The notes under the pieces: generated by a model
Seen by the model: only the letters and a program-made list of their open reading frames with translations
Databases searched by the model: none
What the model was told of the DNA's origin: nothing
Assembly (NCBI GenBank): GCA_963748015.1
Contig: CAVVHE010000006.1
Span: 119,032-183,031, forward strand
Origin: Terriglobia bacterium
GTDB taxonomy: Bacteria > Acidobacteriota > Polarisedimenticolia > Polarisedimenticolales > JAIQFR01
DNA: 64,000 nt
Direction: 5' to 3'
Shown: piece by piece, positions 10,575 to 29,916 of the stretch
Layout: the number at the start of each line of letters is the position of its first letter
Position numbering within the stretch: position 1 is the first letter of the stretch
Program-made: the position numbers and the translations under genes

Positions 10575-12054
10575 TCACGACGCGCTCACCCGGAAGAGGT
10601 GGCACTTCCACGCCCCCATTTCGACGTACAGGCCGGCATCTCGCAGGTCGTCCCCGCTCCGGTCGTACACCTCACTCGACAGGACATCGTCGAGGCGCCA
10701 CGTCTTTCCTCTCAACTCATCCCAGGGCACGTGGACCCGGGCCTGGGCGGTTTCTCGTCCGAAATTGACGACGATGAGAAAGCGGTCTCCGTTCTTGACC
10801 CAGCACCAGCTGACGATGTTCTGGCAGCTCTGGTTGTCGGGCCAGCCGCTCCGCTCGCAGAGGCGCCATGTGCCCGTCCGAAAGACGCCGCGGTGGGTCG
10901 CCGTCAGCAAGCGCTCGTAGAAGGCGACCAGATCGCGATCGACCGGCTCTACCGGGCGGCGGCCCAGGAAGACCGGGAGCCTCGCCCTGAACCCTTCGAA
11001 CTGCCCCTCGTGCAGCAGCCTGGCCCCGGGAAGGGTGAGGATGGCCACCGCGGCGGCCCGGCCCTTCTCCCCCGGAAACGCGACGGCGGCCCTGGGCTCG
11101 TCATGGTTCTCGATGAACCGGACCATCCCCTCCTGGTAGGAAAGGTCCGCCAGGAGGTGCAGGCGGACGTTCTCGGCAGAAGCGTGCTCCATGCGGTCGT
11201 AGAGCTTCTTGTCGTAGCAATGATCGAAGCCTTGCTGCTGCAGCTCCCACTCGAGGTCCCAGTAGGCCTCGGCGATGAACCTGAACTCCGGCCACCGCGC
11301 CTTTGTCGCCGCGATGACGGTCGTCCAGTAGTCGTCGACGGGCCTGTCTCCGGCGCGGGCGCCCCAGGTGCGCTCGAAGATGTCGTTCAGCATGAGCATG
11401 GCCATGTCGCAGCGGATGCCGTCGCACTGCCCGGCGATCTCCGAGACGGTCTCGATCACCGCCTTCCGGAGCCCCGGCTGGAAGGCGTTGAGCTGGAGCA
11501 CGTCGGGCCAGGCGGGGAAGAACGGATCGCGTCCGCAGGCGAAAACGTTGCCTCCGGCCTCGAGGAAGGAAGCCGGATCTTTCTCGAGGTCGTTCCTGTC
11601 TCCCCGGACGAAGTACTCCGGGTGCTCGAATACCCAGGGGTGGTCCGGGGCGACATGGTTCGGCACGAAATCGAGGACGAGACGGATGCCGCGCGTCGCG
11701 AGAGCGTCGCGGGCCGCGGCGAGCCCTTCCGGCCCGCCGAGATGCGCGTCGACGACGTAGCGGCGCACGCAGTACGGCGAGCCGACGTTGTCCTCCGCGC
11801 GAGAAGTCGGGGAGGGCCCTCCTGAAGTCCTCGAGGAGGCCCGCGTTGCGCATGGAGATCTCGATGCCGGCGGGGCTCCGCTCCCAGACCCCCATGAACC
11901 AGACGGCGTCGAAGCCACGGGAGGCGATGGCGTCCCACTCCTGATTCGGAACCGTGGCGAGGTCCAAGGGCTGCCGGTATTTCCGGCTCAGCTCGTCGAG
12001 CCACACCCACGTGTTGATCTCGTAGATCACGGGATTGGTCGGCCACGGTTCCAT
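10575..12054 (-). CDS. GH13 alpha-amylase-family glycosidase; one frameshift near 11800
   Basis: N-terminus IYEINTWVW...WFMGVW in one frame, continuing as [36 protein letters not shown] in another. Confidence 0.85.
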
Positions 12055-12072
12055 GTCGCCCTCCCGCCGGAT

Positions 12073-14832
12073 TCAGGAAACGGGCTCCCCCGTGCCCTTT
12101 CGGGCACCCTGAACGAACGCGGCCTGCTTGCCCACCTCCAGGGCGCGCTTGGCATCCAGAAGGCCGTAGAGCTCGATGAGCTTGGCCACGAGCCCCGGTC
12201 CAGCCGGTCTGGTGACTGGCGCCCAGCCCCGCGCCGTTGTCGCCGTGGAAGTACTCGTAGAAGAGGATGTGGTCGCGCCAGTGGGGATCGGTCTGGAACT
12301 TCTCGGTGCCGCCGTAGACCGGGCGCCGGCCATGCTCGTCGCGGGTGAAGGTGCTGGTGAGCCGGTCGGCGATCTCCTTGCTCACCTCGAAGAGGTTCAT
12401 CATTCTTCCCGATCCCGTCGGGCACTCGATCTTGAAGTTGTCGCCGTAGTACAGGTAGAAGTTCTGCAGCGCCCGGATGATCAGCGCGTTCACCGGCATC
12501 CAGACGGGGCCCCGCCAGTTGGAGTTGCCGCCGAACATGCCGGTGTTCGACTCGGCCGGCAGGTAGTCCACCCGGTACTCCTGGCCGTTGCACGTGGAGG
12601 ACGTACGGGTTCCGCTCGTGGAACTTCGAGATCGAGCGGATGCCGTGGGGACCCAGGAACTCGTTCTCGTCGAGCATCTTCGTCAGGATCCGGCGGAGCC
12701 GCTCCGGGTTGACGCAGGGCCAGGATCCCCCGCTCGGCGACGCCGAGATGTCCCGGGCCGGTGGGGTGGATGGTCATCCATGAGCTCGGGCATGCGGCGC
12801 AGGCGTTCGTAGATCCCGGTCATCGCCCTCGGGATGCGCTCCCGCTGCGACTTCTCGATCACCGTGGTGGCGCAGAGGGGCAGGAGCCCCACCAGGGAAC
12901 GCACCTTGAGCCGCGTGGCGCTGCCGTCGGGGAGCCGCAGGATGTCGTAGTAGAAGCCGTCCTCCTCGTCCCACATGCCGTCCTGGCCGGGGCGGTTCAT
13001 GGCGGCGGCGATGTAGTAGAAGTGCTCCGACGAACTTGAAGACCATGTCCTCGTAGATGGGGTCGTGGGCGGCGAGCTCGACCGCGAGCTCCAGCATGTT
13101 CTGGCTGAAGAGGGCCATCCACGCCGTGCCGTCCGCCTGCTCGAGGTGGCCGCCGGTGGGAAGCGGGGCGCTGCGGTCGAAGACGCCGATGTTGTCGAGG
13201 CCGAGGAAGCCGCCCTCGAAGACGTTCTTGCCGAAGCGGTCCTTGCGGTTGACCCACCAGGTGAAGTTCAGCAGGAGCTTGTTGAAGGTCGACTTGAGGA
13301 AATCGAGGTCCACCTCGCCGCGCAGGGCCTGCTCGGTGCGGTGCAGGAAGAGCGTCGCGAAGGCGTGGACCGGGGGGTTCACGTCGCTGAAGTTCCACTC
13401 GTAGGCGGGCATCTGGCCGTTGGGGTGCAGGTAGGCGCCCGCGGAGCATCAGCTCCATCTGCTCCTTGGCGAAGTCGGGGTCCACGATCGAGAGCGGTAG
13501 CGTGTGGAAGGCCAGGTCCCAGGCCGCGTACCACGGGTACTCCCACTTGTCGGGCATGGAGATGATGTCCTCGTTCAGCATGTGGAACCACTCCGAGTTC
13601 CGGGCAGCTCGATATCCCGTGTGGAGCGGGTTGGAGTTGTGCTCGTCCAGCCAGTTGTCGCCGTCGAAGAAGAAGAACTGCTTGCTCCAGAGCATGCCGG
13701 CGAGGGCCTGGCGCATCACGTTGGCCGCGTCCTCGCTCACGGACGGCGGCGTGACCGACTTGTAGAACTCGTCGGCCTCGCGGAGCCTGTCGGCGAAGAC
13801 GTCGTCGAACGGCTTCCCGAAGGGCTTGCCTTTCGGGCCCGCGGACGGCCTTGGAGAGCCGCAGGCGGATCACCTTGCTCTGGCCGGCGCCGACAGGCGA
13901 CGTGGTAGTGCGCCGCGACCTTGGTGCCCTTGCTGGCCTGGGTTCACCGCGCCCTGGTTGCCGTGCACCACGCAGTCGTTGATGCCGTCCTTGACGTAGG
14001 GGCTCTCGTTCTTCTGCCCGGGAAAGAGCAGCTCGTGGTTCGTCTCGTTCTCGGTGAAGAGCAGCGGCACGTCGCCTTCGCAGGAGAGGATGAACTCGCC
14101 GAGCAGCGGATGCGTGGCCGCAACCGCGCTCGTGCCCGCCGTGCCCTCGATCTGCTCGAGGCTCGGCTTCCGGGCGGCGCGGTTGGATTCGGCGATCCAC
14201 GCCGACCAGTCGTTCCGGAACCACAGCGTCGGCAGAAGGTGCAGCTCGGCCGCGTCCGGTCCCCGGTTGGCCGCCGTGATCTTCACCAGGATGTCCTCGG
14301 CGCCGCCCTTGGCGTACTCCACGAAGACGTCGAAGTACCGGTCGTCGTCGAAGACGCCGGTGTCGAGCAGCTCGTACTCCATCTCGTTGCGAGTGCGGCG
14401 CCGGTTCGTCTCCACCAGGTCGGCGTAGGGATAAGGCGCCTGCGGGTACTTGTAGAGGTACTTCATGTACGAGTGGGTCGGCGTGCTGTCGAGGTAGAAG
14501 TAGTACTCCTTCACGTCCTCGCCGTGGTTCCCCTCGCTGTTGGTCAATCCGAAGAGCCGCTCCTTGAGGATCGGGTCCTTCCCGTTCCACAGGGCCAGCG
14601 CGAAGCAGAGGCGCTGCTTGTCGTCGGAGATGCCGGCCAGCCCGTCCTCGCCCCAGCGGTAGGCGCGCGAGCGGGCCTGATCGTGGGTGAAGAAATTCCA
14701 GGCGTCGCCGTTCTCGCTGTAGTCCTCGCGGACCGTTCCCCACTGGCGCTCGCTGAGGTAGGGCCCCCATTTCTTCCAGTCGATCTTCCGCTCGCGGGCC
14801 TCTTCGAGCCTGAGCTGTTCGGCTGTCTTCAT
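12073..14832 (-). CDS. MGH1-like GH63 glucosidase, broken by multiple frameshifts (probably sequence errors)
   Basis: [112 protein letters not shown] occur in order across shifting frames. Confidence 0.88.
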
Positions 14833-18846: not shown

Positions 18847-19536
18847 CTACACGACGGTCCCGAACAGCTTCCCGAGCAGGGCCGTGCAGCCCATGGCGAC
18901 CGCTCCCCAGAACGCGACGCGAAGGGCGCCCCGCAACGGCGGGGCGGCGCCGAGCCGGGCCGCCAGCCAACCGAGGGCGAGGAGCAGGAGGAGCGAGCTT
19001 CCCGCGACGACGCGGGTCAGGAGCGGGACCGGGACGAGCAGGACCAGAAACAGCGGGAGCGCGGCGCCAACGGCGAACGCCGCCGCGGACGCCAACGCCG
19101 CCTGGACCGGGCGGGCCCGGGTAGTTTCCGACATCCCGAGCTCGTCTCGCGCGTGCGCGGCCAGGGCATCGTGAGCCGACATCTGGTCGACGACCTGGGC
19201 CGCGAGGTCGGGGGTGAGGCCGCGAGCGACGTAGATCGCCACGAGCTCGGCCCGCTCGGCCTCCGGGGCGGTGGCCAGCTCGCGGCGTTCCCGGGCGAGA
19301 TCGGCTTCCTCGGTGTCCGCCTGGGAGCTCACCGAGACGTACTCCCCGGCGGCCATGGAGAGCGCGCCCGCGACGAGGCCGGCGGAGGCGGCCAGGAGGA
19401 CCGGGCCGCGTGTCGCCTGGGCCGCCGCGACGCCGACCACCAGGCTGCTCGTCGAGATGAGGCCGTCATTGGCTCCCAGGACGGCGGCGCGCAGCCAGCC
19501 GATGTGCTCGGTGCGGTGAAGCTCGACGTGTCGCAT
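18847..19536 (-). CDS. VIT1/CCC1 family Fe2+/Mn2+ transporter
   Basis: GWLRAAVLGANDG, AGALSMAAGEYVSVSSQAD, AHARDELG. Confidence 0.93.
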   Translation of the reverse strand: MRHVELHRTEHIGWLRAAVLGANDGLISTSSLVVGVAAAQATRGPVLLAASAGLVAGALSMAAGEYVSVSSQADTEEADLARERRELATAPEAERAELVAIYVARGLTPDLAAQVVDQMSAHDALAAHARDELGMSETTRARPVQAALASAAAFAVGAALPLFLVLLVPVPLLTRVVAGSSLLLLLALGWLAARLGAAPPLRGALRVAFWGAVAMGCTALLGKLFGTVV

Positions 19537-19577
19537 CGGCTCCAGTCTAATCGAATCAACCGCGCCGGTTGCCCCTT

Positions 19578-19583
19578 TATAAT
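19578..19583 (+). promoter_or_regulatory. Consensus -10 (TATAAT) in the divergent VIT1 / gnd intergenic region
   Basis: Exact TATAAT in a very GC-rich context, about 50 nt upstream of the AGGAG-preceded ATG at 19635. Confidence 0.5.
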
Positions 19584-19634
19584 GACCCCGATCGCGGGAC
19601 GACCCGAAACATGGCGAGAGCAAGGAGAAGACCG

Positions 19635-19763
19635 ATGCGCAAGATAATCGCGGTTTCGATGATGGCGGGAGCGGTGTTTCTGGGAAGCGGACAGGTTCCG
19701 GCGGCGGAGACGCCGGCCATGGAGACGCTCACCGACGGCCTCAAGAAGGCCTGCAACAAGTAG
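19635..19763 (+). CDS. 42-aa peptide with a signal sequence, probably the truncated N-terminus of a secreted protein
   Basis: AGGAG RBS, ATG, MRKIIAVSMMAGAVFLGSGQVPAA then ETPAMETLTDGLKKACNK*. Confidence 0.5.
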   Translation: MRKIIAVSMMAGAVFLGSGQVPAAETPAMETLTDGLKKACNK

Positions 19764-19799
19764 CACGCGGGGAGGTCGGTGGGGAGGGGGAGGGGCGCC

Positions 19800-20816
19800 A
19801 TGCAGCTAGGGATGATCGGACTTGGACGGATGGGGGCGAACATGGTCCGCCGGCTGATCGGCGGCGGCCACGAATGCGTCGTGTTCGACATGTCGCCGAA
19901 GGCGGTCGCGGAGCTCGCGAAAGACCAGGCGGTCGGCGCGTCTTCGATGGCGGATTTCGTGGCGAAGCTCTCGAAGCCCCGCGCGATCTGGCTCATGGTT
20001 CCGGCGGCCGTCGTGGACAAGGCGATCGCCGACCTCCTCCCTCTCCTCGCGAAGGGGGACGTCCTGATCGACGGCGGCAACTCGTATTACGTGGACGACA
20101 TCCGGCGGGCGAAGGAGCTGGCCGCGAAGGGGATCCACTACGTGGACGTCGGCACGAGCGGCGGCGTCTGGGGGCTCGAGCGGGGCTACTGCATGATGAT
20201 CGGCGGCGAGGAGGCCATCGTGAAGCGCCTCGACCCGATCTTGAAGCGCCTCGCCCCCGGGCGCGGCGACGTGCCGCGGACGCCCGGGCGCGGGAACGCC
20301 GGCGGCACTTCCGAGGAGGGGTACCTCCATTGCGGTCCGAACGGCGCGGGCCACTTCGTCAAGATGGTCCACAACGGCATCGAGTACGGCCTCATGGCGG
20401 CCTACGCCGAGGGGCTGAACATCCTGAAGCACGCCAACGTGGGCAAGAACGGGCGCGAGGTGGACGCCGAGACGACGCCGCTCCGCAACCCCGAGCACTA
20501 CCAGTACGACCTGAATATCCCCGAGATCGCGGAGGTCTGGCGGCGCGGGAGCGTCGTCGCCTCGTGGCTGCTCGATCTGACGGCGAGCGCTCTCATCGAG
20601 TCCCCGGACCTGGGGGAGTTCTCGGGGCGCGTGTCGGATTCGGGAGAGGGACGCTGGACCATCCTGGCGGCGATCGACGAGGGGGTGCCGGCCGAGGTCC
20701 TCACGGCCTCCCTCTACGAGCGGTTCTCGTCGCGCGGAGAGGCGGAGTTCCAGAACAAGCTGCTGTCCGCGATGCGATTCCAGTTCGGCGGGCATCACGA
20801 GAAGCCCGCGAGGTGA
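19800..20816 (+). CDS. gnd: Decarboxylating 6-phosphogluconate dehydrogenase (short YqeC-type)
   Basis: [55 protein letters not shown]. Confidence 0.95.
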
Positions 20817-20826
20817 GGAGAACGCG

Positions 20827-21023
20827 ATGATCCCGCCCCGGTCATCGGCGTGGCCAAGGCAGACCGGAATCTCGACCGGCTGAAAGCCCGGGTGAAGGAA
20901 CTGGGGGGGGCGCAAAGAGGCCGGAACCCCGTCTTCCCTCACGAACCGCAATACTCGGGACGAACGGAAGTCGAGCGCGTCACGCCCCCCGACGGGTGGC
21001 ATGACCCGGTCATGAATCGATAG
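20827..21023 (+). pseudogene. zwf: Internally deleted relic of glucose-6-phosphate dehydrogenase
   Basis: GAGGAG + ATG; segment PVIGVAKADRNLDRLKARVKELGG (Zwf N-terminal-like) and segment PVFPHEP...EVERVTPPDGWHDPVMNR* (Zwf C-terminal-like); lies between gnd and pgl. Confidence 0.68.
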
Positions 21024-21032
21024 GGAGGTGTT

Positions 21033-21743
21033 GTGATGGACGTGCGCATCCTCGCCGGCCCCGATGCCGTGGCCGCCGAAGCCGCAAGGGTGATCGCCGC
21101 CGAGGCGCGGGCGGCCGTGGCGGCGCGTGGGCGCTTCGTCTTGGCGGTCAGTGGCGGCCGTACGCCGCGGCTCATGCTGCGCGCGCTCGCGGCCGAAGAC
21201 GTGCCGTGGGCCAGTGTGCACGTGGTGCAGGTGGACGAGCGCATCGCCCCCGCCGGCGATCCCGATCGCAACCTCACGCACCTGTGCCTTAGCCTGCTCG
21301 AGTATGCGCCGCTGCGGGCGGAGCGGATCCACGCCATGCCGGTCGAGGAGGCCGACGTCGAAGCGGCCGCCCGCGGCTACGCGCGCACCCTCGAACGGAT
21401 CGCCGGCACGCCGCCGGTGCTCGACCTCGCCCATCTCGGGCTCGGGCCGGACGGCCACACGGCATCTCTGGTTCCCGGCGATCCCGTCCTGGACGTCGTG
21501 GACCGGGACGTCGCGCCGACCGGCGTCTACATGAAGCGGCGCCGCATGACGTTGACCTATCCGATCCTCGATCGTTCGCGGCGCATCCTCTGGGTGGTGA
21601 CCGGCGTGGAGAAGGCCGCGATGCTCTCGCGTCTCATCGCAGCGGATGCGTCGATTCCAGCGGGTCGCGTGCGTCGGGAGCAAGCCCTGGTTCTGGCCGA
21701 CCGCTCCGCCACGGGGGAGAAGGCAGGACCGACGACCCGTTGA
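21033..21743 (+). CDS. pgl: 6-phosphogluconolactonase
   Basis: AVSGGRTP, QVDER, DLAHLGLGPDGHTASL, RMTLTYP, VTGVEKA. Confidence 0.92.
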   Translation: MMDVRILAGPDAVAAEAARVIAAEARAAVAARGRFVLAVSGGRTPRLMLRALAAEDVPWASVHVVQVDERIAPAGDPDRNLTHLCLSLLEYAPLRAERIHAMPVEEADVEAAARGYARTLERIAGTPPVLDLAHLGLGPDGHTASLVPGDPVLDVVDRDVAPTGVYMKRRRMTLTYPILDRSRRILWVVTGVEKAAMLSRLIAADASIPAGRVRREQALVLADRSATGEKAGPTTR

Positions 21744-21827
21744 TCGGACTCGCCGTCAGCACGATCCGCACCCCCCCGATCGACGCGGTGCAGGCGGCGA
21801 AGGCGCTTGGTCGGGAGCGAGGGGGGG

Positions 21828-21836
21828 TGGTACGCT
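21828..21836 (+). promoter_or_regulatory. Extended -10 (TGnTACGCT) ending 10 nt before the ATG of the bsh-like cluster; near-leaderless transcript
   Basis: TGGTACGCT at 21828-21836; TTGGTC at 21807-21812; no Shine-Dalgarno before ATG 21846. Confidence 0.5.
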
Positions 21837-21845
21837 GACCCACTC

Positions 21846-23420
21846 ATGAGCGAGCCGGTCATCTGCTTCGGGCAGCAGCCCTGCGGCTTCTTTCCGAAGC
21901 GGTTCTTCTACGCGAAGCTGGTCACGGCACTCCGGCTGCGGCGGGAGCTCGGCGGGCGCGTCGTGTGGTTCTGTCACGACAGCGACCACGACTACCGCGA
22001 GACCACGACACCGCTCGTGGACCTCAAGACGGGGGACCTCAAGCGGATCAACTTCGACCACGTGAGCAAGATCCAGAAGAGCTACTCTCCCCTCTACGTC
22101 AAGCGGATCAAGGACGACTGGCAGGAGCGGACCGCGCGCGTCCTGCCGTGCTTCGTGGGTCCGGAGCTGGTAGACCTCTTCCGGTCGGTCCGGGCCACGC
22201 TCGCGGCCGACTTCTGCCTCGAGATGTACCGGCGCCTCGGGCTCCTCGAGGGGGTCGAGGTGATGCGCTCGAGCGATCCCGAGGTTCGGCGCCAGGCGGT
22301 TGCGATCGAGGACCCGTACGTGGACGTGGAGTACGAGGGGGAGATTGTGCGGGCCCGGCGACAGGGGGGAAGGCTCCGGTTGCACAAGGGCGGGGGCGAG
22401 TTCATCGAGCTCCCCGACCTCGAGACCGGCAAGGAAAGCATCAGCCCGGCGCGCGACGCCCGCCTGCGCTGGATGCAGTCGGTGGTGCGCTGCACCCACT
22501 ACGTCGCCGGGGCGAGCGAGGTGCAGTACCTGAACACGTCGGAGACTCCGGAGATCACCTTCGTGGAGCGCGACGCGATCGACGACTCCCACGGGTCGTT
22601 CGTCGGCGTGGCCCCGCAGCGGGGGGGTGGTAGGCTTCCAAGCTCAACCGGAGATTCGAGCTTGAGTCGCGACGCCAACCACGACGCCCCGAGCGCCACC
22701 GCGCCATCGCCACGCCGTATCCTGGCGGTCGGCGCGCATCCCGACGACGTCGAGTTCGGTTGCGGCGGCATCCTCGTCAAGGAGGCCGCCCGCGGCCACG
22801 AGGTCACGATCCTGAGCTTGTCTCGCGGCGAGGCGGCCTCGAACGGGGACCCCGAGACGCGCCGGCGCGAGGGCGAGGCGGCCGCGGAGGTCATCGGCGC
22901 GCGTCTCGAGCTCCTCGATCTCGAGGGGGACTCGCGGATCGAGTACCGGCCGCCGAACGCCGTCGCCATCGCGCGCGTCATCCGGCGGTTGCGGCCGCAC
23001 ATCCTGCTCGCGCCGTCGCCGGAGGAGAACCAGCACCCCGATCACGCCAAGGCCGGGCGGCTGGTCCGCGATGCCGCGCGCTTGGCCCGCTACGGCGGGC
23101 TCGAGGACCTGGCGCCCGCCCCGGCCCACGCCATCGACGCGCTCTACTTCTTCGAGATCACCGGGACCGGCCTCGGCTCCGCCTCGACCGGCCTGCCCTG
23201 GATCGTCGTGGACGTTTCGGATGTCGTGGCGACCTGGCGCAAAGCGATGGAATGTCACGCGACGCAGCTGGCCACGCGCAACTACGTCGAGCTGCAACTG
23301 GCGCGTGCCCGCGCGCTCGGACTCGAGATCGGCGTCGAGCACGCCATGGCGGTCCGTGCGAACGATCCGATCCGCCTCGAGGGGCTCACGGACCTCCGGG
23401 GTTCGGGGAGGCGGTTCTGA
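21846..23420 (+). CDS. Miniature BshC-like domain in frame with a BshB1-like PIG-L deacetylase
   Basis: N-terminal ~255 aa: GQQPCGFF, WFCHDSDHDYRE, ISPARDARLRWMQ...HYVAGASEVQY echo the BshC motifs GQQxG, W..xEDHDxxE and SP...YxGGPGExxY. C-terminal half: AVGAHPDDVEFGCGG, RRREG, HPDH. Confidence 0.78.
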   Translation: MSEPVICFGQQPCGFFPKRFFYAKLVTALRLRRELGGRVVWFCHDSDHDYRETTTPLVDLKTGDLKRINFDHVSKIQKSYSPLYVKRIKDDWQERTARVLPCFVGPELVDLFRSVRATLAADFCLEMYRRLGLLEGVEVMRSSDPEVRRQAVAIEDPYVDVEYEGEIVRARRQGGRLRLHKGGGEFIELPDLETGKESISPARDARLRWMQSVVRCTHYVAGASEVQYLNTSETPEITFVERDAIDDSHGSFVGVAPQRGGGRLPSSTGDSSLSRDANHDAPSATAPSPRRILAVGAHPDDVEFGCGGILVKEAARGHEVTILSLSRGEAASNGDPETRRREGEAAAEVIGARLELLDLEGDSRIEYRPPNAVAIARVIRRLRPHILLAPSPEENQHPDHAKAGRLVRDAARLARYGGLEDLAPAPAHAIDALYFFEITGTGLGSASTGLPWIVVDVSDVVATWRKAMECHATQLATRNYVELQLARARALGLEIGVEHAMAVRANDPIRLEGLTDLRGSGRRF

Positions 23421-24577
23421 GCGGCTCTCGCACGGCGGACGGTCCCCTGCGGATCGCCATCACCTGCTACCCGACGGTCGGCGGCAGCGGCATTCTCGCC
23501 TCGCAGCTCGGGCAGCAACTGGCGGCGCGGGGCCACGAGGTGCACTTCGTCTCCTACGGCATGCCGTTCCGGCTGGACGGAACGGCGCCCAACATCTTCT
23601 TCCACCCCGTGAGCGTCAACGAGTACGATCTCTTCCGCTATCCGGACTACACGCTGCCGCTCTCGGTGACTCTGGCGGAGGTCAGCCGGGACTTCGATCT
23701 CGACCTGATCCACGCGCACTACGCCGTGCCGCACGCCGTCGCTGCCTACCTGGCCCGGCAGATGATCGGGGAGGGAGCGCCTCGCGTCATCACCACGCTG
23801 CACGGCACCGACACGACGCTCATGGGGCAGGACCCGAACTACCAGCCCGTGATCCGCCACGCCATCGAGCACTCTTCGGGGGTGACGGCGGTGAGCGCAT
23901 TCCTTCGCGACGAGACGAAGAGCACCTTCCAGGTGGAGCACGAAATCCGCGTCATCCACAACTTCTTCGCGCCCATCAGCCCGAGCCGCGACCGGGAGCG
24001 GGTGCGCGCGGAGCTGGGGGTCGGCGACGAGCTCCTGGTGCTCCACATGTCGAACCTCCGGCCGGTCAAGCGGATCGATGACCTGCTGCGGGTCATCGCC
24101 GCCTCGCGGCACCGCGACCGCGTGCGGCTCCTGATCCTGGCCGGAGGCGACTTCGCCCCGTACCGCCGGCAGGTCGAAGCACTCGGGATCGCGTCGCAGG
24201 TGACCGTGATGCAGTCGGTACTGGACGTGGAGAACTACCTCAACGCCGCCGACGTGGGGCTGTACACCTCCGAGCACGAGTCGTTCGGCCTGAGCATCCT
24301 GGAGAGCATGTTCCACCGACACCCGATTCTCGCGGCGCGCGCCGGCGGCGTCCCGGAGGTCGTCGTGGACGGGGAAACCGGTTTCCTGGCGCCGGTGGGG
24401 GACATCGACGGCCTCGCCGGGAAGCTCGACGCGATCGTGGAGGATAGGGAGCGCTACCGGCCGATGGGGGAGCGGGGCTACGAGAGGGCGAGGGCGCTCT
24501 TTTCCGCCGAGCGGATCACGGGGGAGTATCTCGATTTCTACCGGCAGGTTCTAGTGTCCCGGGAAGCGCGGGAGTAG
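23417..24577 (+). CDS. bshA: N-acetyl-alpha-D-glucosaminyl L-malate synthase (GT4)
   Basis: ITCYPTVGGSG, HAHYAVPHA, TTLHGTD, SNLRPVKR, ESFGL; probable CTG start overlapping the upstream TGA, after GGGGAGG. Confidence 0.88.
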   Translation: MSGSRTADGPLRIAITCYPTVGGSGILASQLGQQLAARGHEVHFVSYGMPFRLDGTAPNIFFHPVSVNEYDLFRYPDYTLPLSVTLAEVSRDFDLDLIHAHYAVPHAVAAYLARQMIGEGAPRVITTLHGTDTTLMGQDPNYQPVIRHAIEHSSGVTAVSAFLRDETKSTFQVEHEIRVIHNFFAPISPSRDRERVRAELGVGDELLVLHMSNLRPVKRIDDLLRVIAASRHRDRVRLLILAGGDFAPYRRQVEALGIASQVTVMQSVLDVENYLNAADVGLYTSEHESFGLSILESMFHRHPILAARAGGVPEVVVDGETGFLAPVGDIDGLAGKLDAIVEDRERYRPMGERGYERARALFSAERITGEYLDFYRQVLVSREARE

Positions 24578-24592
24578 GCGGGGGACGAAGAC

Positions 24593-27097
24593 GTGACGAG
24601 ATGGACCTCGAAAGCCACCGGAGCGTGCGCCATGGGGATTCTGCTGGGATGCATGGGGACGGGCTCCGCCATGGCGCTCGTGCCGAAGCGGCCCGACGCG
24701 GCCGAGATCCAGCTTGCGCTCAAGAAGCTCCAGTTCCTGGGAAGCGCGCTCTACGTGGCGGCGCATCCCGACGACGAGAACACGCGCCTCATGGCGTGGC
24801 TCGTCAACGGACGCCTGGCGGACGCCGCGTATCTCTCCATGACCCGCGGCGACGGCGGGCAGAACCTGATCGGTCCGGAGATCGGCGACCTGCTGGGGAT
24901 CATCCGCTCGCAGGAGCTGCTAGCGGCGCGCCGGATCGACGGCGGGCGGCAGTTCTTCACCCGGGCGATCGACTTCGGGTATTCCAAGACGCCGGAGGAG
25001 ACGCTGCGGATCTGGGACCGGGAGCAAGTGCTCGCCGACACGGTGCGGATCGTGAGGCAATTCCAGCCGGACGTGGTGATCACCCGGTTCCCCGCCGCCA
25101 ATCGCGATACGCACGGGCACCACACCTCGTCCGCGTGGATCGCGCGCGACGCCATGGCGGCGGCCGGCGACCCGAAGCGTTTCCCCGAGCAGCTCGATCG
25201 CCTGGCGACGTGGCGGCCGCGGCGGCTGCTCTGGAACACCTCGCGCTTCTTCTACGACAAGCCGGAGGACCTCAAGCCGGACACGCTGGTCAAGGTCGAC
25301 GCCGGCGCGTACAACCCGTTGCTCGGGGAGTCGTACACGGAACTCGCCGCCCGCGCCCGCAGCATGCACAAGAGCCAGGGGTTCGGGTCGAGCGGCCAGC
25401 GCGGCGAGGTGCTCGAGTACCTCGCGCCGGCTGAAGGCGAGGGGACGCCCCGCGACCTCTTCGAGGGGATCGACACGACGTGGGGGAGGGTGCCGGGCGG
25501 CAAGGCGGTGGGCGGCCTCCTCGATCGGGCCTACCGCGAGTTCGTCCCCGAGAGCCCGGCCGGCATCGTGCCGCGCCTGCTCGAGGCGCGCGCGAAGCTG
25601 GCGGCGCTGCCGCCCGGCCGCTGGACGACCGCCAAGAGGGCCGACCTCGACCAGGTCATCGCCGCCTGCCTCGGCCTCTACCTCGAGGCCGCGGCCGACG
25701 TCTATGCGGCGGTGCCCGGCGACACGTTGAAGATCAATCTCGAGGCGGTCAACCGGTCGCCGGTGGCGGTGCGGCTGAAGAAGGTGACCGTCGCCGCCGC
25801 AGGAAGCGACCTCCCGTGGGAGCAGGACCTCGACAGCCGCCAGAGCTTCAAGAAGACGGTCGAGGTGACGCTGCCGGCGGACCTTCCGGACTCGCAGCCG
25901 TACTGGCTGCGCGAGAAGGGCACCCTCGGGATGTTCCGCGTCGACGAAGCGGCGCTCATCGGCCTGCCCGAGAACCCGCCCGCGCTGACGGCGTCGTTCG
26001 CCCTCGAGGTGGAGGGGACGCCTATCGTCTTCGACAGGCCGGTCGTCTACAGGCGGACCGACCCGGTGCACGGAGAGCAGTACCGGCCGTTCGAGGTGAT
26101 CCCGGCGGTCGCCGTGACCGTCACCGAGAGCGTCTTCGTCCTGCCGCCCGAGCTGTCGTCGCACGAGGTGGCGGTCGAGCTCCGTGCCGGCCGGGCCGGC
26201 GTCGAGGGGACCGTGCGGCTCGAGGCGCCCGCGGGCTGGACCGCGAGCCCCGCGTCGCGCCCGTTCCGCATCGACGAGAAGGACGCGACCGCCACGGTGA
26301 CCTTCGATCTCGTGCCGCCGGCCGCGCCGTCGGCCGGGGTCCTGCGGGCGGTGGCCGAGATCGCCGGGCGGCGCTACCAGCGCGGGCTCGTCCACATCGT
26401 CCACGACCACATCCCGACCCAGGTCGTCATGCCGCCCGCCGAGGCCCGTGTCGTGCGCGCCGACGTGCGTCGCAAGGGGCAGAACGTCGGCTACGTGCAG
26501 GGAGCCGGCGACCAGGTGCCGGCGGGGCTGCGCGAGATCGGCTACACGGTGACCGAGCTGTCCGTGGACGATCTGGTCCCGGACCGCCTGCGTGGCTTCG
26601 ACGCGATCGTCCTCGGCGTGCGGGCGTACAACACGCTCGACCGCATCCGCTTCCAGCAGCCGGCGCTGTTCGACTACGTGAAGGGCGGGGGGACGTTGAT
26701 CGTGCAGTACACCACCGGGCAGGAGCTGAAGGTCGAGTCCGTCGCTCCGCTGCCGCTCACGATCTCGCGCGAGCGGGTGAGCGAGGAGGGGGCCGAGGTC
26801 CGGTTCCTGGCTCCGGACCACCCGGTGCTCAACCGGCCGAACCGGATCACGGCCTCGGACTTCGAGGGCTGGGTGCAGGAGCGCGGTCTCTACTTCGCCG
26901 GCAAGTGGGACCCCGCCTTCACCGCGGTGCTCTCGAGCAACGACGCGGGCGAGCCCCCGCGCGACGGCGGACTGCTCGTGGCGAAGTACGGCGAGGGCTG
27001 GTTCGTGTACACCGGCTACTCCTTCTTCCGGCAGCTCCCGGCCGGGGTGCCGGGGGCTTACCGGCTGTTCGCGAATCTCATCGCGCTGGGCAAGTGA
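24593..27097 (+). CDS. Large secreted PIG-L/LmbE-family deacetylase with Ig-like central domains and a glutamine-amidotransferase-like C-terminal domain
   Basis: Signal peptide; AAHPDDEN, TRGDGGQN, DFGYSK, HGHH, HKSQG; C-terminal GWVQERGLYF...FFRQLPAGVPGAYRLFANLI. Confidence 0.85.
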   Translation: MTRWTSKATGACAMGILLGCMGTGSAMALVPKRPDAAEIQLALKKLQFLGSALYVAAHPDDENTRLMAWLVNGRLADAAYLSMTRGDGGQNLIGPEIGDLLGIIRSQELLAARRIDGGRQFFTRAIDFGYSKTPEETLRIWDREQVLADTVRIVRQFQPDVVITRFPAANRDTHGHHTSSAWIARDAMAAAGDPKRFPEQLDRLATWRPRRLLWNTSRFFYDKPEDLKPDTLVKVDAGAYNPLLGESYTELAARARSMHKSQGFGSSGQRGEVLEYLAPAEGEGTPRDLFEGIDTTWGRVPGGKAVGGLLDRAYREFVPESPAGIVPRLLEARAKLAALPPGRWTTAKRADLDQVIAACLGLYLEAAADVYAAVPGDTLKINLEAVNRSPVAVRLKKVTVAAAGSDLPWEQDLDSRQSFKKTVEVTLPADLPDSQPYWLREKGTLGMFRVDEAALIGLPENPPALTASFALEVEGTPIVFDRPVVYRRTDPVHGEQYRPFEVIPAVAVTVTESVFVLPPELSSHEVAVELRAGRAGVEGTVRLEAPAGWTASPASRPFRIDEKDATATVTFDLVPPAAPSAGVLRAVAEIAGRRYQRGLVHIVHDHIPTQVVMPPAEARVVRADVRRKGQNVGYVQGAGDQVPAGLREIGYTVTELSVDDLVPDRLRGFDAIVLGVRAYNTLDRIRFQQPALFDYVKGGGTLIVQYTTGQELKVESVAPLPLTISRERVSEEGAEVRFLAPDHPVLNRPNRITASDFEGWVQERGLYFAGKWDPAFTAVLSSNDAGEPPRDGGLLVAKYGEGWFVYTGYSFFRQLPAGVPGAYRLFANLIALGK

Positions 27098-27142: not shown

Positions 27143-27289
27143 ATGACGACCGATCCCGAAAAGGCGAAACGGATCCTCGACGACCGGCCGCCGTTCTTCC
27201 GGACCTGGACCGACGTGTACGCCGCGGTGATCGGTCTCCTCGGCGTGCTGGTCCTGGTCTTCAGCCTCCTCACGAGGATTCTCGGGTGA
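27143..27289 (+). CDS. 48-aa single-TM membrane protein coupled to the symporter (below the ORF-track cutoff)
   Basis: MTTDPEKAKRILDDRPPFFRTWTDVYAAVIGLLGVLVLVFSLLTRILG*; its TGA overlaps the GTG of the symporter. Confidence 0.7.
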   Translation: MTTDPEKAKRILDDRPPFFRTWTDVYAAVIGLLGVLVLVFSLLTRILG

Positions 27290-29007
27290 GCGCTCTCGAC
27301 GTCGTCGTCCTCCTCGGCACGCTCGTGGGCATCGCCGCCTACGGTGCCTGGAAGACGCGCGGCAACCGCGACCTCGAGGAGTACTTCGGCGGCGACCACT
27401 CGATGAAGTGGGGCACCATCGGCCTCTCGGTGATGGCGACCCAGGCGAGCGCCGTGACCTTCCTCTCGACGCCCGGCTTCGGCTACGAGAAGGGAATGGA
27501 GTTCGTCCAGAACTACCTGGGCCTGCCGATCGCCCTGGTCCTCGTGTCCGCCGCTGTTCATCCCCGTGTACTACCGGAGCGGCGTGTACACGGCCTACGA
27601 GTACCTCGAGCGGCGCTTCGACCTCAAGACCCGGCAGCTGGGCGCCGTCCTGTTCCTCGTGCAGCGGGGACTCGCTTCCGGCATCACGCTCTATGCCCCC
27701 GCGATCATCGTCTCGAATCTCATGGGGTGGAGACTCAACTCCACCATCCTGCTGTCGGGGCTCCTGGTCGTGATCTACACGGTCGCCGGGGGCTCCCGGG
27801 CGGTCAGCCTCACGCAGAAGCACCAGATGGCGGTGATCCTGGTCGGCATGGGCGTGGCGTTCCTCCTCGTCGTCGTGTACCTGTCCCGGGAGATCCCCAT
27901 CGCGCAGGCCCTGCCCCTGGCGGGCAAGCTGGGGAAGATGGAGATCGTCAACTTCTCCTTCGACTACAGCCGGCGGTACACCTTCTGGTCGGGGATCTTC
28001 GGAGGCCTGTTCCTGGCGCTGTCGTACTTCGGCACGGACCAGTCGCAGGTGGGGCGCTATCTCACGGGGAAGTCGGTCACCGAGGGCCGCATGGGACTGA
28101 TGTTCAACGCCGTGCTCAAGGTGCCGATGCAGTTCCTGATCCTGCTCACCGGGGTGATGGTGTTCCTGTTCTACCAGTTCGTGCAGCCGCCGATCCTCTT
28201 CAAGCGGCCGGCGCTCCAGGCCGTGTACGCGTCGGCGCGCGCCGGGGAGATGAAGGCGCTCGAGACCCGCTACGCCGCGGTGTTCACCGAGAAGCGCGAA
28301 GCGGTGCGGACGCTGGCCACGGCCCTCAAAAAAGGCGACGACGGCGCGGTCACCTTGGCCAGGGCCCGGGTCGGGGACCTCGCGGCGCGGGGGAGAAGAT
28401 CCGGGACGAGGCGAAGTCGCTGGTGGCCGAGGTCGCCCCGGGGATGGAGGCGAAGGACTCCGACTACGTCTTCCTGACCTTCGTCGTGCAGCACCTCCCG
28501 CGAGGCGTCATCGGTCTCCTGATCGCGGTGATCTTCTGCGCCGGGATGTCGTCGAGCTCGTCCGAGTTCAACGCCCTCGGCTCGACCTCCACCGTCGACA
28601 TCTACCGCCGGCTCGTCCGGCCGAAGGAGAGCGAGCGGCATTACGTGTTCGTGTCGAAGGCGCTCACGGCGTTCTGGGGACTGGTCGCGATCGCGTTCGC
28701 CATGGCGGCCTCGCTCGCCGAGAACCTGATCGAGGCGATCAACATTCTCGGGTCCCTGTTCTACGGCACCATCCTGGGGATCTTCCTGACCGCGTTCCTG
28801 CTGAAGCGGGTGCAGGGGACCGCGGTGTTCCTTGCGGCCCTCCTGGCGGAGGGCACGGTCGTCACGCTCTACTTCACCACCCACATCGGCTATCTCTGGT
28901 ACAACCTCATCGGCTGCATGATGGTCCTGGCGCTGGGCGCGGCGTTCGAGACCCTCCTGCCGGGTCCACGCAGGAACGCCGTTGCCCCGGGGGTCGGAGG
29001 GAGCTAG
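27286..29007 (+). CDS. Sodium:solute symporter (SSS family); two compensating frameshifts near 27553 and 28393
   Basis: GLSVMATQASAVTFLSTPG; in a second frame TAYEYLERRFD and YFGTDQSQVGRYL; back in the first frame GLLIAVIFCAGMSS. Confidence 0.88.
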   Translation: MSALDVVVLLGTLVGIAAYGAWKTRGNRDLEEYFGGDHSMKWGTIGLSVMATQASAVTFLSTPGFGYEKGMEFVQNYLGLPIALVLVSAAVHPRVLPERRVHGLRVPRAALRPQDPAAGRRPVPRAAGTRFRHHALCPRDHRLESHGVETQLHHPAVGAPGRDLHGRRGLPGGQPHAEAPDGGDPGRHGRGVPPRRRVPVPGDPHRAGPAPGGQAGEDGDRQLLLRLQPAVHLLVGDLRRPVPGAVVLRHGPVAGGALSHGEVGHRGPHGTDVQRRAQGADAVPDPAHRGDGVPVLPVRAAADPLQAAGAPGRVRVGARRGDEGARDPLRRGVHREARSGADAGHGPQKRRRRRGHLGQGPGRGPRGAGEKIRDEAKSLVAEVAPGMEAKDSDYVFLTFVVQHLPRGVIGLLIAVIFCAGMSSSSSEFNALGSTSTVDIYRRLVRPKESERHYVFVSKALTAFWGLVAIAFAMAASLAENLIEAINILGSLFYGTILGIFLTAFLLKRVQGTAVFLAALLAEGTVVTLYFTTHIGYLWYNLIGCMMVLALGAAFETLLPGPRRNAVAPGVGGS

Positions 29008-29064: not shown

Positions 29065-29916
29065 ATGAAGAAGATCCTGTTGTCCGCCGCCGTTCTCATG
29101 TTGCTCATGCCGTCCGCGTTCGCGCAGCTCAAGCTGCCCCGGCCCAGCCAGAAGGGCTCGGTCATGCAGACGGTCGGGCTGACCGACGTCACGATCACCT
29201 ACAGCCGTCCCGGCGTGAAGGGACGCACCATCTGGGGCGACCTGGTTCCCTACGACAAGGTCTGGCGGACGGGCGCCAACGAGGCCACCACCATCGTGTT
29301 CGGCAAGGACGTGACCATCAACGGCAAGCCGCTTCCCGCCGGCACGTACAGCCTGCACACCATCCCCGGCAAGAGCTCCTGGACGCTCATCTTCAACAAG
29401 AAGGCCGACCAGTGGGGCAGCTACAGCTACGACGCCGCACAGGACGCGCTGCGCGTCGAGGCCGCGCCGGCCGCGGGGCCGCACGTGGAGTGGCTGACCT
29501 TCTCCTTCCCCGACATCAAGAACGACTCCGCGCAGGTGGAGCTGGCCTGGGAGAAGCTGCGGGTGGCGTTCACGATCGGCGCCGACACCAACAACCAGGC
29601 GCTCGCCGAGATCCGGAAGACCCTGGCGGGCGAGGTGAAGGAGTGGAACGTCCCGTACGGCGCCGCCGGCTTCGTGTTCAACAACAACCTCGACAACAAG
29701 GCCGAGGCGATGAAGTGGATCGACCAGTCGATCGCCATGAAGGAGACGTTCTACAACCTCCGTCTCAAGGCGCAGATGCTCGCGAAGGACGGCAAGCCGA
29801 AGGACGCCGTCGCGTTCGGCGAGAAGGCCGTGGCCGTCGGCAAGGCCGACCCGAACGCCGCCGACGAGGTCGCGAAGCTGGAGAAGCAGATCGCGGAGTG
29901 GAAGGCCGGCAAGTAA
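29065..29916 (+). CDS. Secreted DUF2911-family protein with a TPR-like C-terminus
   Basis: GAGGAGG RBS; PRPSQ...QTVGLTDVTITYSRPGVKGR...VWRTGANEAT...GTYSLHTIP. Confidence 0.88.
   Translation: MKKILLSAAVLMLLMPSAFAQLKLPRPSQKGSVMQTVGLTDVTITYSRPGVKGRTIWGDLVPYDKVWRTGANEATTIVFGKDVTINGKPLPAGTYSLHTIPGKSSWTLIFNKKADQWGSYSYDAAQDALRVEAAPAAGPHVEWLTFSFPDIKNDSAQVELAWEKLRVAFTIGADTNNQALAEIRKTLAGEVKEWNVPYGAAGFVFNNNLDNKAEAMKWIDQSIAMKETFYNLRLKAQMLAKDGKPKDAVAFGEKAVAVGKADPNAADEVAKLEKQIAEWKAGK

Follow-up and report, generated by a model that had tools for sequence, protein, structure and literature searches.

We analyzed a 64-kb stretch of contig CAVVHE010000006.1 from a Terriglobia bacterium of the phylum Acidobacteriota (64,000 nucleotides; here, the window), in which an assembled open reading frame (ORF) of 524 amino acids (aa) at 21846-23420 carries a short BshC-like domain at its N terminus and a BshB1-like part at its C terminus, followed by bshA. 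Judged by its predicted fold, the N-terminal domain (residues 1-255) is a BshC homologue stripped of the first ~80-85 residues and of the coiled coil. BshC acts last in the synthesis of bacillithiol, an antioxidant of the cell. The domain belongs to a half-size BshC subfamily that is real, that replaces canonical BshC, and that is undescribed in the literature searched. We consider it probable that the short BshC carries out the BshC step, the addition of cysteine to glucosaminyl-malate (GlcN-malate), that the surrounding cassette makes bacillithiol, and that the join to BshB1 is an assembly error.

A half-size homologue of BshC

An AlphaFold2 model of residues 1-255, built from 59 homologues, had a pLDDT of 95.3 and contained no long helices. 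When this model was searched with Foldseek, the sole match at E<=1e-3 was Bacillus subtilis BshC (4WBD, E 3.5e-11). The same structure ranked top among 48,161 representative chains, with a Z score of 20.2 and an rmsd of 2.4 Å over 238 of the 255 residues (4WBD chain range 82-512), at a sequence identity of 13%. The second structural match was the class I lysyl-tRNA synthetase (LysRS) 1IRX (Z 14.4, with 208 residues aligned to 1IRX residues 19-293); the remaining class I synthetases reached Z scores of 9.2 or less, and MshC (3C8Z) reached 7.5. The end of the aligned range at residue 512 hints that, in the model, the last residues of the short BshC stand where the 4WBD segment after the coiled coil lies. 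A first-pass annotation of this DNA had proposed a half-length BshC lacking the coiled coil and had suggested comparing its profile and structure with those of BshC. Similarity was found by both routes, and the Foldseek match, the structural Z score, and the profile alignments described below bear the proposal out.

The same annotation had quoted three motifs, all of which are present in the order given: GQQPCGFF (residues 9-16), WFCHDSDHDYRE (41-52), and ISP..WMQ..HYVAGASEVQY (199-228). Because these motifs are invariant or nearly so across the 59 homologues, they are not chance resemblances. In a forced global profile alignment, the short form covers canonical BshC residues ~85-406; it is missing ~85 residues at the N terminus, ~37 from the second insert, and the coiled-coil region at the C terminus. 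The residues GQQ, K24, D47-H48-D49, E52, R206, Q211, G222, E225, Y228, and R242 align with invariant BshC columns, a mapping made by profile alignment rather than by residue-level superposition; on this mapping, most of the conserved active-site motifs (GQQ, K, EDHD-x-x-E, R..QD, G-P-x-E-x-x-Y, and PR) appear to be retained. With hhalign, the short form matched the ~400-aa BshC forms found in other Acidobacteriota at 97.8% (E 1e-12, 219 columns; range 97.8-98.9%) and a pool of canonical and ~400-aa forms at 97.0%. Its ESM Atlas features reached PF10079 clusters at 0.91, and PF10079, the BshC Rossmann domain, was matched by 27 of the 59 short-form members (best E 8.5e-6).

Other comparisons weigh against a conserved BshC function. 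Residues 1-255 of the window's ORF exceeded the cut-off of no family (for PF10079, E 0.1 and 12.4 bits against a cut-off of 27), they had no match to TIGR03998, and the short form aligned with canonical BshC alone at 74.8% over 62 columns. Three columns that are invariant in 15 canonical BshCs are altered (W to F42, E to S46, and D to S212), and C7, H44, D45, C124, and H218 are newly invariant in the short form, with C13 and C216 conserved at >=90%. Given these changed columns and new conserved residues, the substrate could have changed. A search of PDB sequences with the 59-member profile returned two chance matches to GST (E 1.9) and no BshC, because the link is too remote for a sequence-only search, and no full-length BshC was present among the 150 listed of 227 matches to 50%-identity representatives, which comprised the short family and fragments only. 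Overall, the short form likely works like BshC, yet neither its score nor its architecture qualifies it for TIGR03998.

Distribution of the short form and of canonical bshC

The short family is large and unannotated, with proteins of ~256 aa. Among candidates of 140-447 aa, 6657 of the 7999 scored matched it, and 117 of the 120 listed were 250-300 aa long. The 80 loci that we examined from GTDB genomes are mostly from Verrucomicrobiota, together with Acidobacteriota, Planctomycetota, and three Patescibacteria.

The first-pass annotation had asked whether the source genome (4.83 Mb, 9 contigs, 100% complete, 1.8% contaminated) holds a full-length bshC elsewhere. No match to PF10079 or TIGR03998 that would represent a canonical gene was found in this 100% complete assembly, and TIGR03998 matched none of 34 genomes chosen from short-form loci (genome completeness not given). 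In a sample of 201 genomes from the window's phylum, 125 carry bshA, 131 have a TIGR03998 match, and 122 have both; the three genomes with bshA and without a TIGR03998 match are exactly the three with the short form. One of the 122 genomes (G096, unpublished) adds one to the phylum counts, and no conclusion depends on it. A further nine of the 201 genomes have bshC without bshA at the threshold used. Among 151 genomes of Verrucomicrobiota, bshA is present in eight, of which seven have the short form and one has the canonical form. Considering both phyla together (352 genomes), all ten bshA genomes without canonical bshC carry the short form, and none has both. These genomes are kin rather than independent samples, so the counts describe a pattern and are not a statistical test. 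The pattern suggests that the short form likely takes the place of canonical BshC.

In a phylogenetic tree, the short forms make up one clade (100/100) on a branch of 4.1 changes per site, and a branch of this length also counts against an unchanged function. The tree, which used 17 of the 59 short rows, neither roots the family nor gives the direction of reduction. Diversity within the short form is shallow across Acidobacteriota, Verrucomicrobiota, Planctomycetota, and Patescibacteria, which fits a mobile cassette, as far as an unrooted tree can indicate. The ~400-aa BshC forms of other Acidobacteriota (L101-L110 and L088; genomes G194, G108, G147, G091, G253, G249, G231, G135, G124, and G222) are likewise missing ~85 residues at the N terminus and fall far short of the TIGR03998 cut-off. 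They make two separate groups, which indicates that shortening of BshC took place on more than one occasion. In the three Patescibacteria (L010:1105-3731, L012:5989-8738, and L016:6001-8278), the locus consists of only short bshC-bshB-bshA. Their short BshCs form one clade (100/99), and two of the loci have 35-39% GC and an ABC transporter gene just upstream; together, these features argue against a binning error.

Published surveys place these hosts in context (here and below, citations refer to the available portions of the papers). Bacillithiol has been predicted in Acidobacteria, and the bacillithiol genes of Chlorobi and Bacteroidetes are also in print (PMC6282198). Accordingly, the first-pass description of a pathway "in a diderm" is right about the host and not new as an observation. 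Verrucomicrobia and Planctomycetes were named as groups without a predicted thiol (PMC6282198), the terms Verrucomicrob, Opitut, and Planctomyc were not found in the supplements of that paper, and the 2025 NmbA paper, in its available portion, includes two Planctomycetota and no Verrucomicrobiota (PMC12719100). Orthologue surveys required a length similar to that of the ~540-aa BshC (PMC6282198; bioRxiv 2025.07.06.663066), and this filter made them blind to a half-size form. No half-size BshC appeared in the titles or abstract openings of the literature searched, a search whose reach excluded most subscription papers. The natural ~256-aa version shows which parts of BshC evolution can drop (the N-terminal lobe and the coiled coil) and which residues stay; being compact and modelled with high confidence, it also lends itself to testing. 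A further prediction is that parts of Verrucomicrobiota (7 of 151 sampled genomes), Planctomycetota, and Patescibacteria make a bacillithiol-type thiol.

The junction with bshB1

The first-pass annotation described the BshC-like domain as joined to BshB1. This part of the description did not hold up, since none of the loci compared is fused (0/79, 0/45, and 0/3 in the three sets below), the Shine-Dalgarno (SD) sequence and start of bshB1 are kept, and the read-through occurs in a single genome. In all 79 GTDB loci with a stop codon (80 examined, one of which runs off its contig), short bshC is a separate gene of 254-270 codons. The two genes are likewise unfused in 45 of 45 metagenome loci that hold both; these loci were found with the whole 524-aa query, and of the 80 examined, 35 were dropped because they held one gene or part of one. 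In three related genomes with the gene (of 40 searched), it stops at 257-267 aa, and two of these have no adjoining bshB1. Across the GTDB, metagenome, and related loci, the stand-alone length is 254-280 aa. The fusion is thus peculiar to this window and likely spurious.

The DNA of the junction suggests how a separate gene could appear joined. The apparent linker aligns to non-coding DNA past the stop codon in L117, L114, and L115. It holds GGAGA (22650-22654), and an in-frame TTG (22662) stands at the position of the GTG, ATG, or TTG starts of relatives. Stops are present in both other frames (TAG at 22631-22633 and TGA at 22663), and the window is one base shorter than L117 directly after a run of seven G residues at 22621-22627. 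One extra base in this run would bring the TAG at 22631 into frame and yield a protein of 262 aa, within the length range of the family. Single-base indels also occur elsewhere in the cassette: compared with four of four relatives, the symporter gene has one extra base at ~27547 and one missing base in a G run at ~28390, 5.8 kb from the junction. In a census of frameshifts, 7 of 106 rows were flagged, one of which is a gene junction and two of which belong to the same symporter gene, leaving 5 of about 104 genes broken; some of these may be real lesions. A long gene on the minus strand at 12027-14832, which resembles a glycoside hydrolase by appearance, falls into pieces in several frames and likewise points to indels in the assembly. 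Given these data, we regard an assembly error as the probable origin of the BshC-BshB1 join. Certainty on this point is reduced by the absence of reads bridging 22542-22675 among the listed pieces of a near-identical run; in a related contig, 101 letters stand where the window has 12, at 22608-22621.

Alternatively, this strain may truly carry the fusion: a small deletion would have removed the stop codon and given a 524-aa two-enzyme protein. At the position of the L117 stop, the window is short by ~28-30 nt, which a one-base error leaves unexplained, and the G run is also seven long in L117. Moreover, three longer database proteins join BshC and BshB domains, one of them intact-looking (P0125), a point that speaks against assembly error. 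Fusions of this kind are rare, with three to BshB compared to 6657 matches of near family length, and two of the three contain scrambled stretches. Overall, 10 of 5654 longer candidates match the short domain, and the partner is the product of an adjoining gene each time (symporter in five, BshB in three, BshA-type in one, unlabelled in one). Scrambled stretches occur in three of these long proteins, and four break off within the domain; the symporter fusion P0124 and the BshB fusion P0125 look intact, and P0126 nearly so. A real fusion also has to contend with the unfused state of every comparable locus, the retained SD and start of bshB1, the missing base just past the G run with TAG 4 nt farther on, and an assembly that holds other single-base indels, including the G-run loss at ~28390, and broken genes. 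We therefore view a real fusion as a less likely, though credible, alternative. Its plausible form is an accidental read-through, to which we assign the same modest chance; a fusion selected for channelling is the least likely form and very improbable. A real fusion would bear on nothing but the junction and could hold alongside the explanation that we favor for the short BshC itself.

The TGnTAGGCT element in the junction DNA appears to be a conserved resemblance only, as a promoter scan of 21600-22800 found no sigma-70 consensus.

The cassette, its predicted product, and known systems

The range given in the first-pass annotation ended with bshA (24577); the cassette continues to 29916 (Table 1). 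In the survey of gene neighborhoods that the annotation had proposed, homologues are linked to bshA in 75 and to bshB in 44 of the 80 GTDB loci. In the same loci, the symporter is present in 69, the ~830-aa PIG-L protein in 62, and DUF2911 in 51. Restricting the count to 44 loci with full flanks gives bshA in 42, the symporter and PIG-L in 40 each, DUF2911 in 38, and bshB1 in 24. Of five loci without adjacent bshA, four have bshA elsewhere in the genome. The conserved unit is short bshC-bshB1-bshA together with a putatively exported PIG-L protein, a Na+ symporter, and DUF2911; the small ORF is a candidate member. Once the six cassette genes are set aside, the three largest clusters on the same strand occur in 15, 12, and 11 of the 80 loci and are mostly alternative frames. 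In Verrucomicrobiota, the seven genomes with the short form are also those with the PIG-L protein. In the sample of the window's phylum, 98 of 102 PIG-L carriers have bshA or bshC, and PIG-L is present in only 4 of the 67 genomes without bshA and bshC. This neighbor also travels with canonical bsh genes and is therefore not specific to the short form.

Table 1. Positions and features of the cassette genes in the 64-kb window
Feature	Position	Strand	Remarks
Half-size bshC homologue	21846..22633	+	Conserved domain 21846-22610 (255 aa); likely true end at TAG 22631-22633, out of frame in the assembly
Read-through intergenic DNA	22611..22661	+	G7 run 22621-22627, TGnTAGGCT element, SD GGAGA 22650-22654
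bshB1-like Zn deacetylase	22662..23420	+	Own predicted TTG start (M-S-R-D-A); matching starts in relatives
bshA, GlcNAc-malate synthase	23417..24577	+	TIGR03999 score; BshA motifs
~830-aa PIG-L/LmbE hydrolase	24593..27097	+	PF02585; signal-peptide-like N terminus (export inferred by eye)
48-aa ORF, one hydrophobic stretch; overlaps the start of the symporter gene	27143..27289	+	Between the PIG-L gene and the symporter
Sodium:solute symporter, frame-broken in the assembly	27286..29007	+	PF00474 on intact orthologue
DUF2911 protein, signal-peptide-like N terminus	29065..29916	+	PF11138 E 5e-57

Both pathway genes named in the first-pass annotation were recovered. BshA scored 414.1 bits against TIGR03999 (cut-off 273.7), and its motifs are found both in 71 cassette copies and in 9 copies taken from loci with canonical or ~400-aa bshC. 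Residues ~290-524 of the 524-aa ORF are a PIG-L deacetylase (PF02585 E 4e-25) with the sequences AHPDD and QHPDH, which supply the His-x-x-Asp...His zinc ligands of PIG-L proteins. TIGR04001 (BshB1) is the best family for this part at 150.3 bits, below its cut-off of 182.5 (BshB2 scored 42.9), and the orthologue in genome G009 is likewise under the cut-off (155.7 bits). The conserved N terminus of bshA has no preceding ATG, GTG, or TTG; the start is likely a CTG overlapping the bshB1 TGA (23417-23420). The absence of an adjacent N-methyltransferase gene, which had also been noted, extends to all neighbor genes scanned, among which no methyltransferase adjoins the cassette (no dedicated NmbA search was made). 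Upstream, at 18847-21743, lie a VIT1-family gene, an ORF that resembles 6-phosphogluconate dehydrogenase by eye, and a 6-phosphogluconolactonase, none of which recurs in the 80 loci. An ORF family of ~143-145 aa without a Pfam match follows bshA in 12 of the 80 loci (e.g., L049:8815-9243). In an Opitutales locus (L017:8637-10016), bshA is followed by a GNAT protein and an arylamine-type N-acetyltransferase, which suggests possible mercapturate-type processing there.

According to published work, BshC consists of a Rossmann core that carries two connecting peptides and of a coiled coil on which dimerization depends, and its activity has never been shown in vitro (PMC4360819, PMC5790435). The reaction had not been reconstituted and the cysteine donor was unknown in 2015 and 2018 (PMC4360819, PMC5790435), and the 2018 review also assumed an unknown form of activated cysteine (PMC5790435). 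For the short form, the analysis itself shows the modelled fold, the motifs, the order of the genes, the lack of overlap with canonical bshC in the genomes searched, and the stand-alone state of the gene in relatives. In the pathway that we consider probable, BshA would make GlcNAc-malate, given that its motifs match those from canonical and ~400-aa bshC loci; BshB1 would remove the acetyl group; and the short enzyme would attach cysteine to GlcN-malate. HIGH and KMSKS are the ATP-binding motifs of class I synthetases. Because these motifs and the coiled coil are absent, transfer of pre-activated cysteine is the most likely chemistry: the short BshC may be a bare class I aminoacyl-tRNA-synthetase-type core that transfers cysteine activated elsewhere instead of making Cys-AMP. 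The donor could be Cys-tRNA or another thio- or oxy-ester carrier, and the exported PIG-L hydrolase and symporter would likely serve to salvage GlcN-malate or to deliver it from the periplasm.

The gene content of short-form genomes provides some evidence against bacillithiol as the product. Of 75 bshA loci, 31 have no bshB1, and in five genomes with such loci (G001, G003, G045, G054, and G071), four have no bshB1 match genome-wide and the fifth has a match of 32%. As for bacillithiol-using proteins, searches of five short-form genomes each turned up no BrxA/B, YtxJ, or BstA, and no YpdA over its cut-off. These absences are weak counter-evidence because canonical-bshC controls are also often negative (BrxA/B in 2 of 5, YpdA in 1 of 5). 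The source genome and G001 have a YpdA-like flavoprotein (G000:C4:2207067-2207867, L194; 146 bits against a cut-off of 340), a possible stand-in disulfide reductase. gshB over its cut-off was not found in the five short-form genomes.

A change of specificity would account for several of these observations. The short enzyme might place another acyl group or amino acid on GlcN-malate, or act on a related sugar-acid, and its product would be a new bacillithiol-like thiol, or a metabolite that is not a thiol, with turnover by the exported PIG-L hydrolase and the symporter. The long branch, the altered invariant positions, the new conserved Cys and His residues, the lack of known bacillithiol-using enzymes in the short-form genomes tested, and the frequent absence of bshB are all consistent with this proposal. 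Set against it, BshA retains its motifs and most of the core motifs of BshC appear to be kept, W-x-x-x-E-D-H-D is variable in the ~400-aa BshC forms as well, the PIG-L partner is common to canonical clusters, and the short and canonical forms did not co-occur in the genomes searched, as expected for proteins with the same job. We judge such a change unlikely. Equally doubtful is a more specific version, in which a mobile seven-gene system makes a new bacillithiol-like molecule by transferring a pre-activated group different from plain cysteine, with the extra conserved Cys and His in the core, onto GlcN-malate. In the many carriers that lack a cytoplasmic BshB, deacetylation would occur in the periplasm via the exported PIG-L hydrolase, followed by re-import through the symporter. 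If true, this would mean an undescribed thiol or metabolite in Verrucomicrobiota, Planctomycetota, and even Patescibacteria.

It is less probable still that the short protein is a substrate-binding half that needs a partner for its lost coiled coil, or that the cassette mainly salvages parts of bacillithiol. Although ~290 residues are gone, including the coiled coil reported to drive dimerization (PMC4360819, PMC5790435), reviews propose a missing partner for BshC, and export and uptake genes are present in 38-40 of 44 full-flank loci, no further cytoplasmic gene recurs beside short bshC, the Patescibacteria loci hold nothing beyond the three bsh genes, and bshA, the committed step of synthesis, is nearly always present.

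Among known systems, the short form is closest to BshC (YllA) of B. subtilis (4WBD; TIGR03998, PF10079 and PF24850). The two have in common a Rossmann core with connecting-peptide inserts, linkage to bshA and bshB, and, as placed by profile alignment, the GQQ, DHD-x-x-E, R-x-x-x-x-Q, and G-x-x-E-x-x-Y motifs, whereas the B. subtilis protein is ~540 aa long with a coiled-coil dimerization domain and the short form is 255 aa long without one. The ~400-aa forms (families f31, f42, and f49) also start at the GQQ strand and give the best profile match, but they keep the C-terminal helical part and a QER motif, and the short form is a separate clade from them (100/100). Class I LysRS (1IRX) and MshC (3C8Z) share the fold at 8-11% identity; unlike them, the short form lacks HIGH, KMSKS, and an anticodon-binding domain. 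At the level of the pathway, the cassette resembles the bacillithiol and N-methyl-bacillithiol pathways of the diderm Chlorobi, Bacteroidota, and Acidobacteria (PMC6282198) in having bshA, bshB, and a bshC-type gene.

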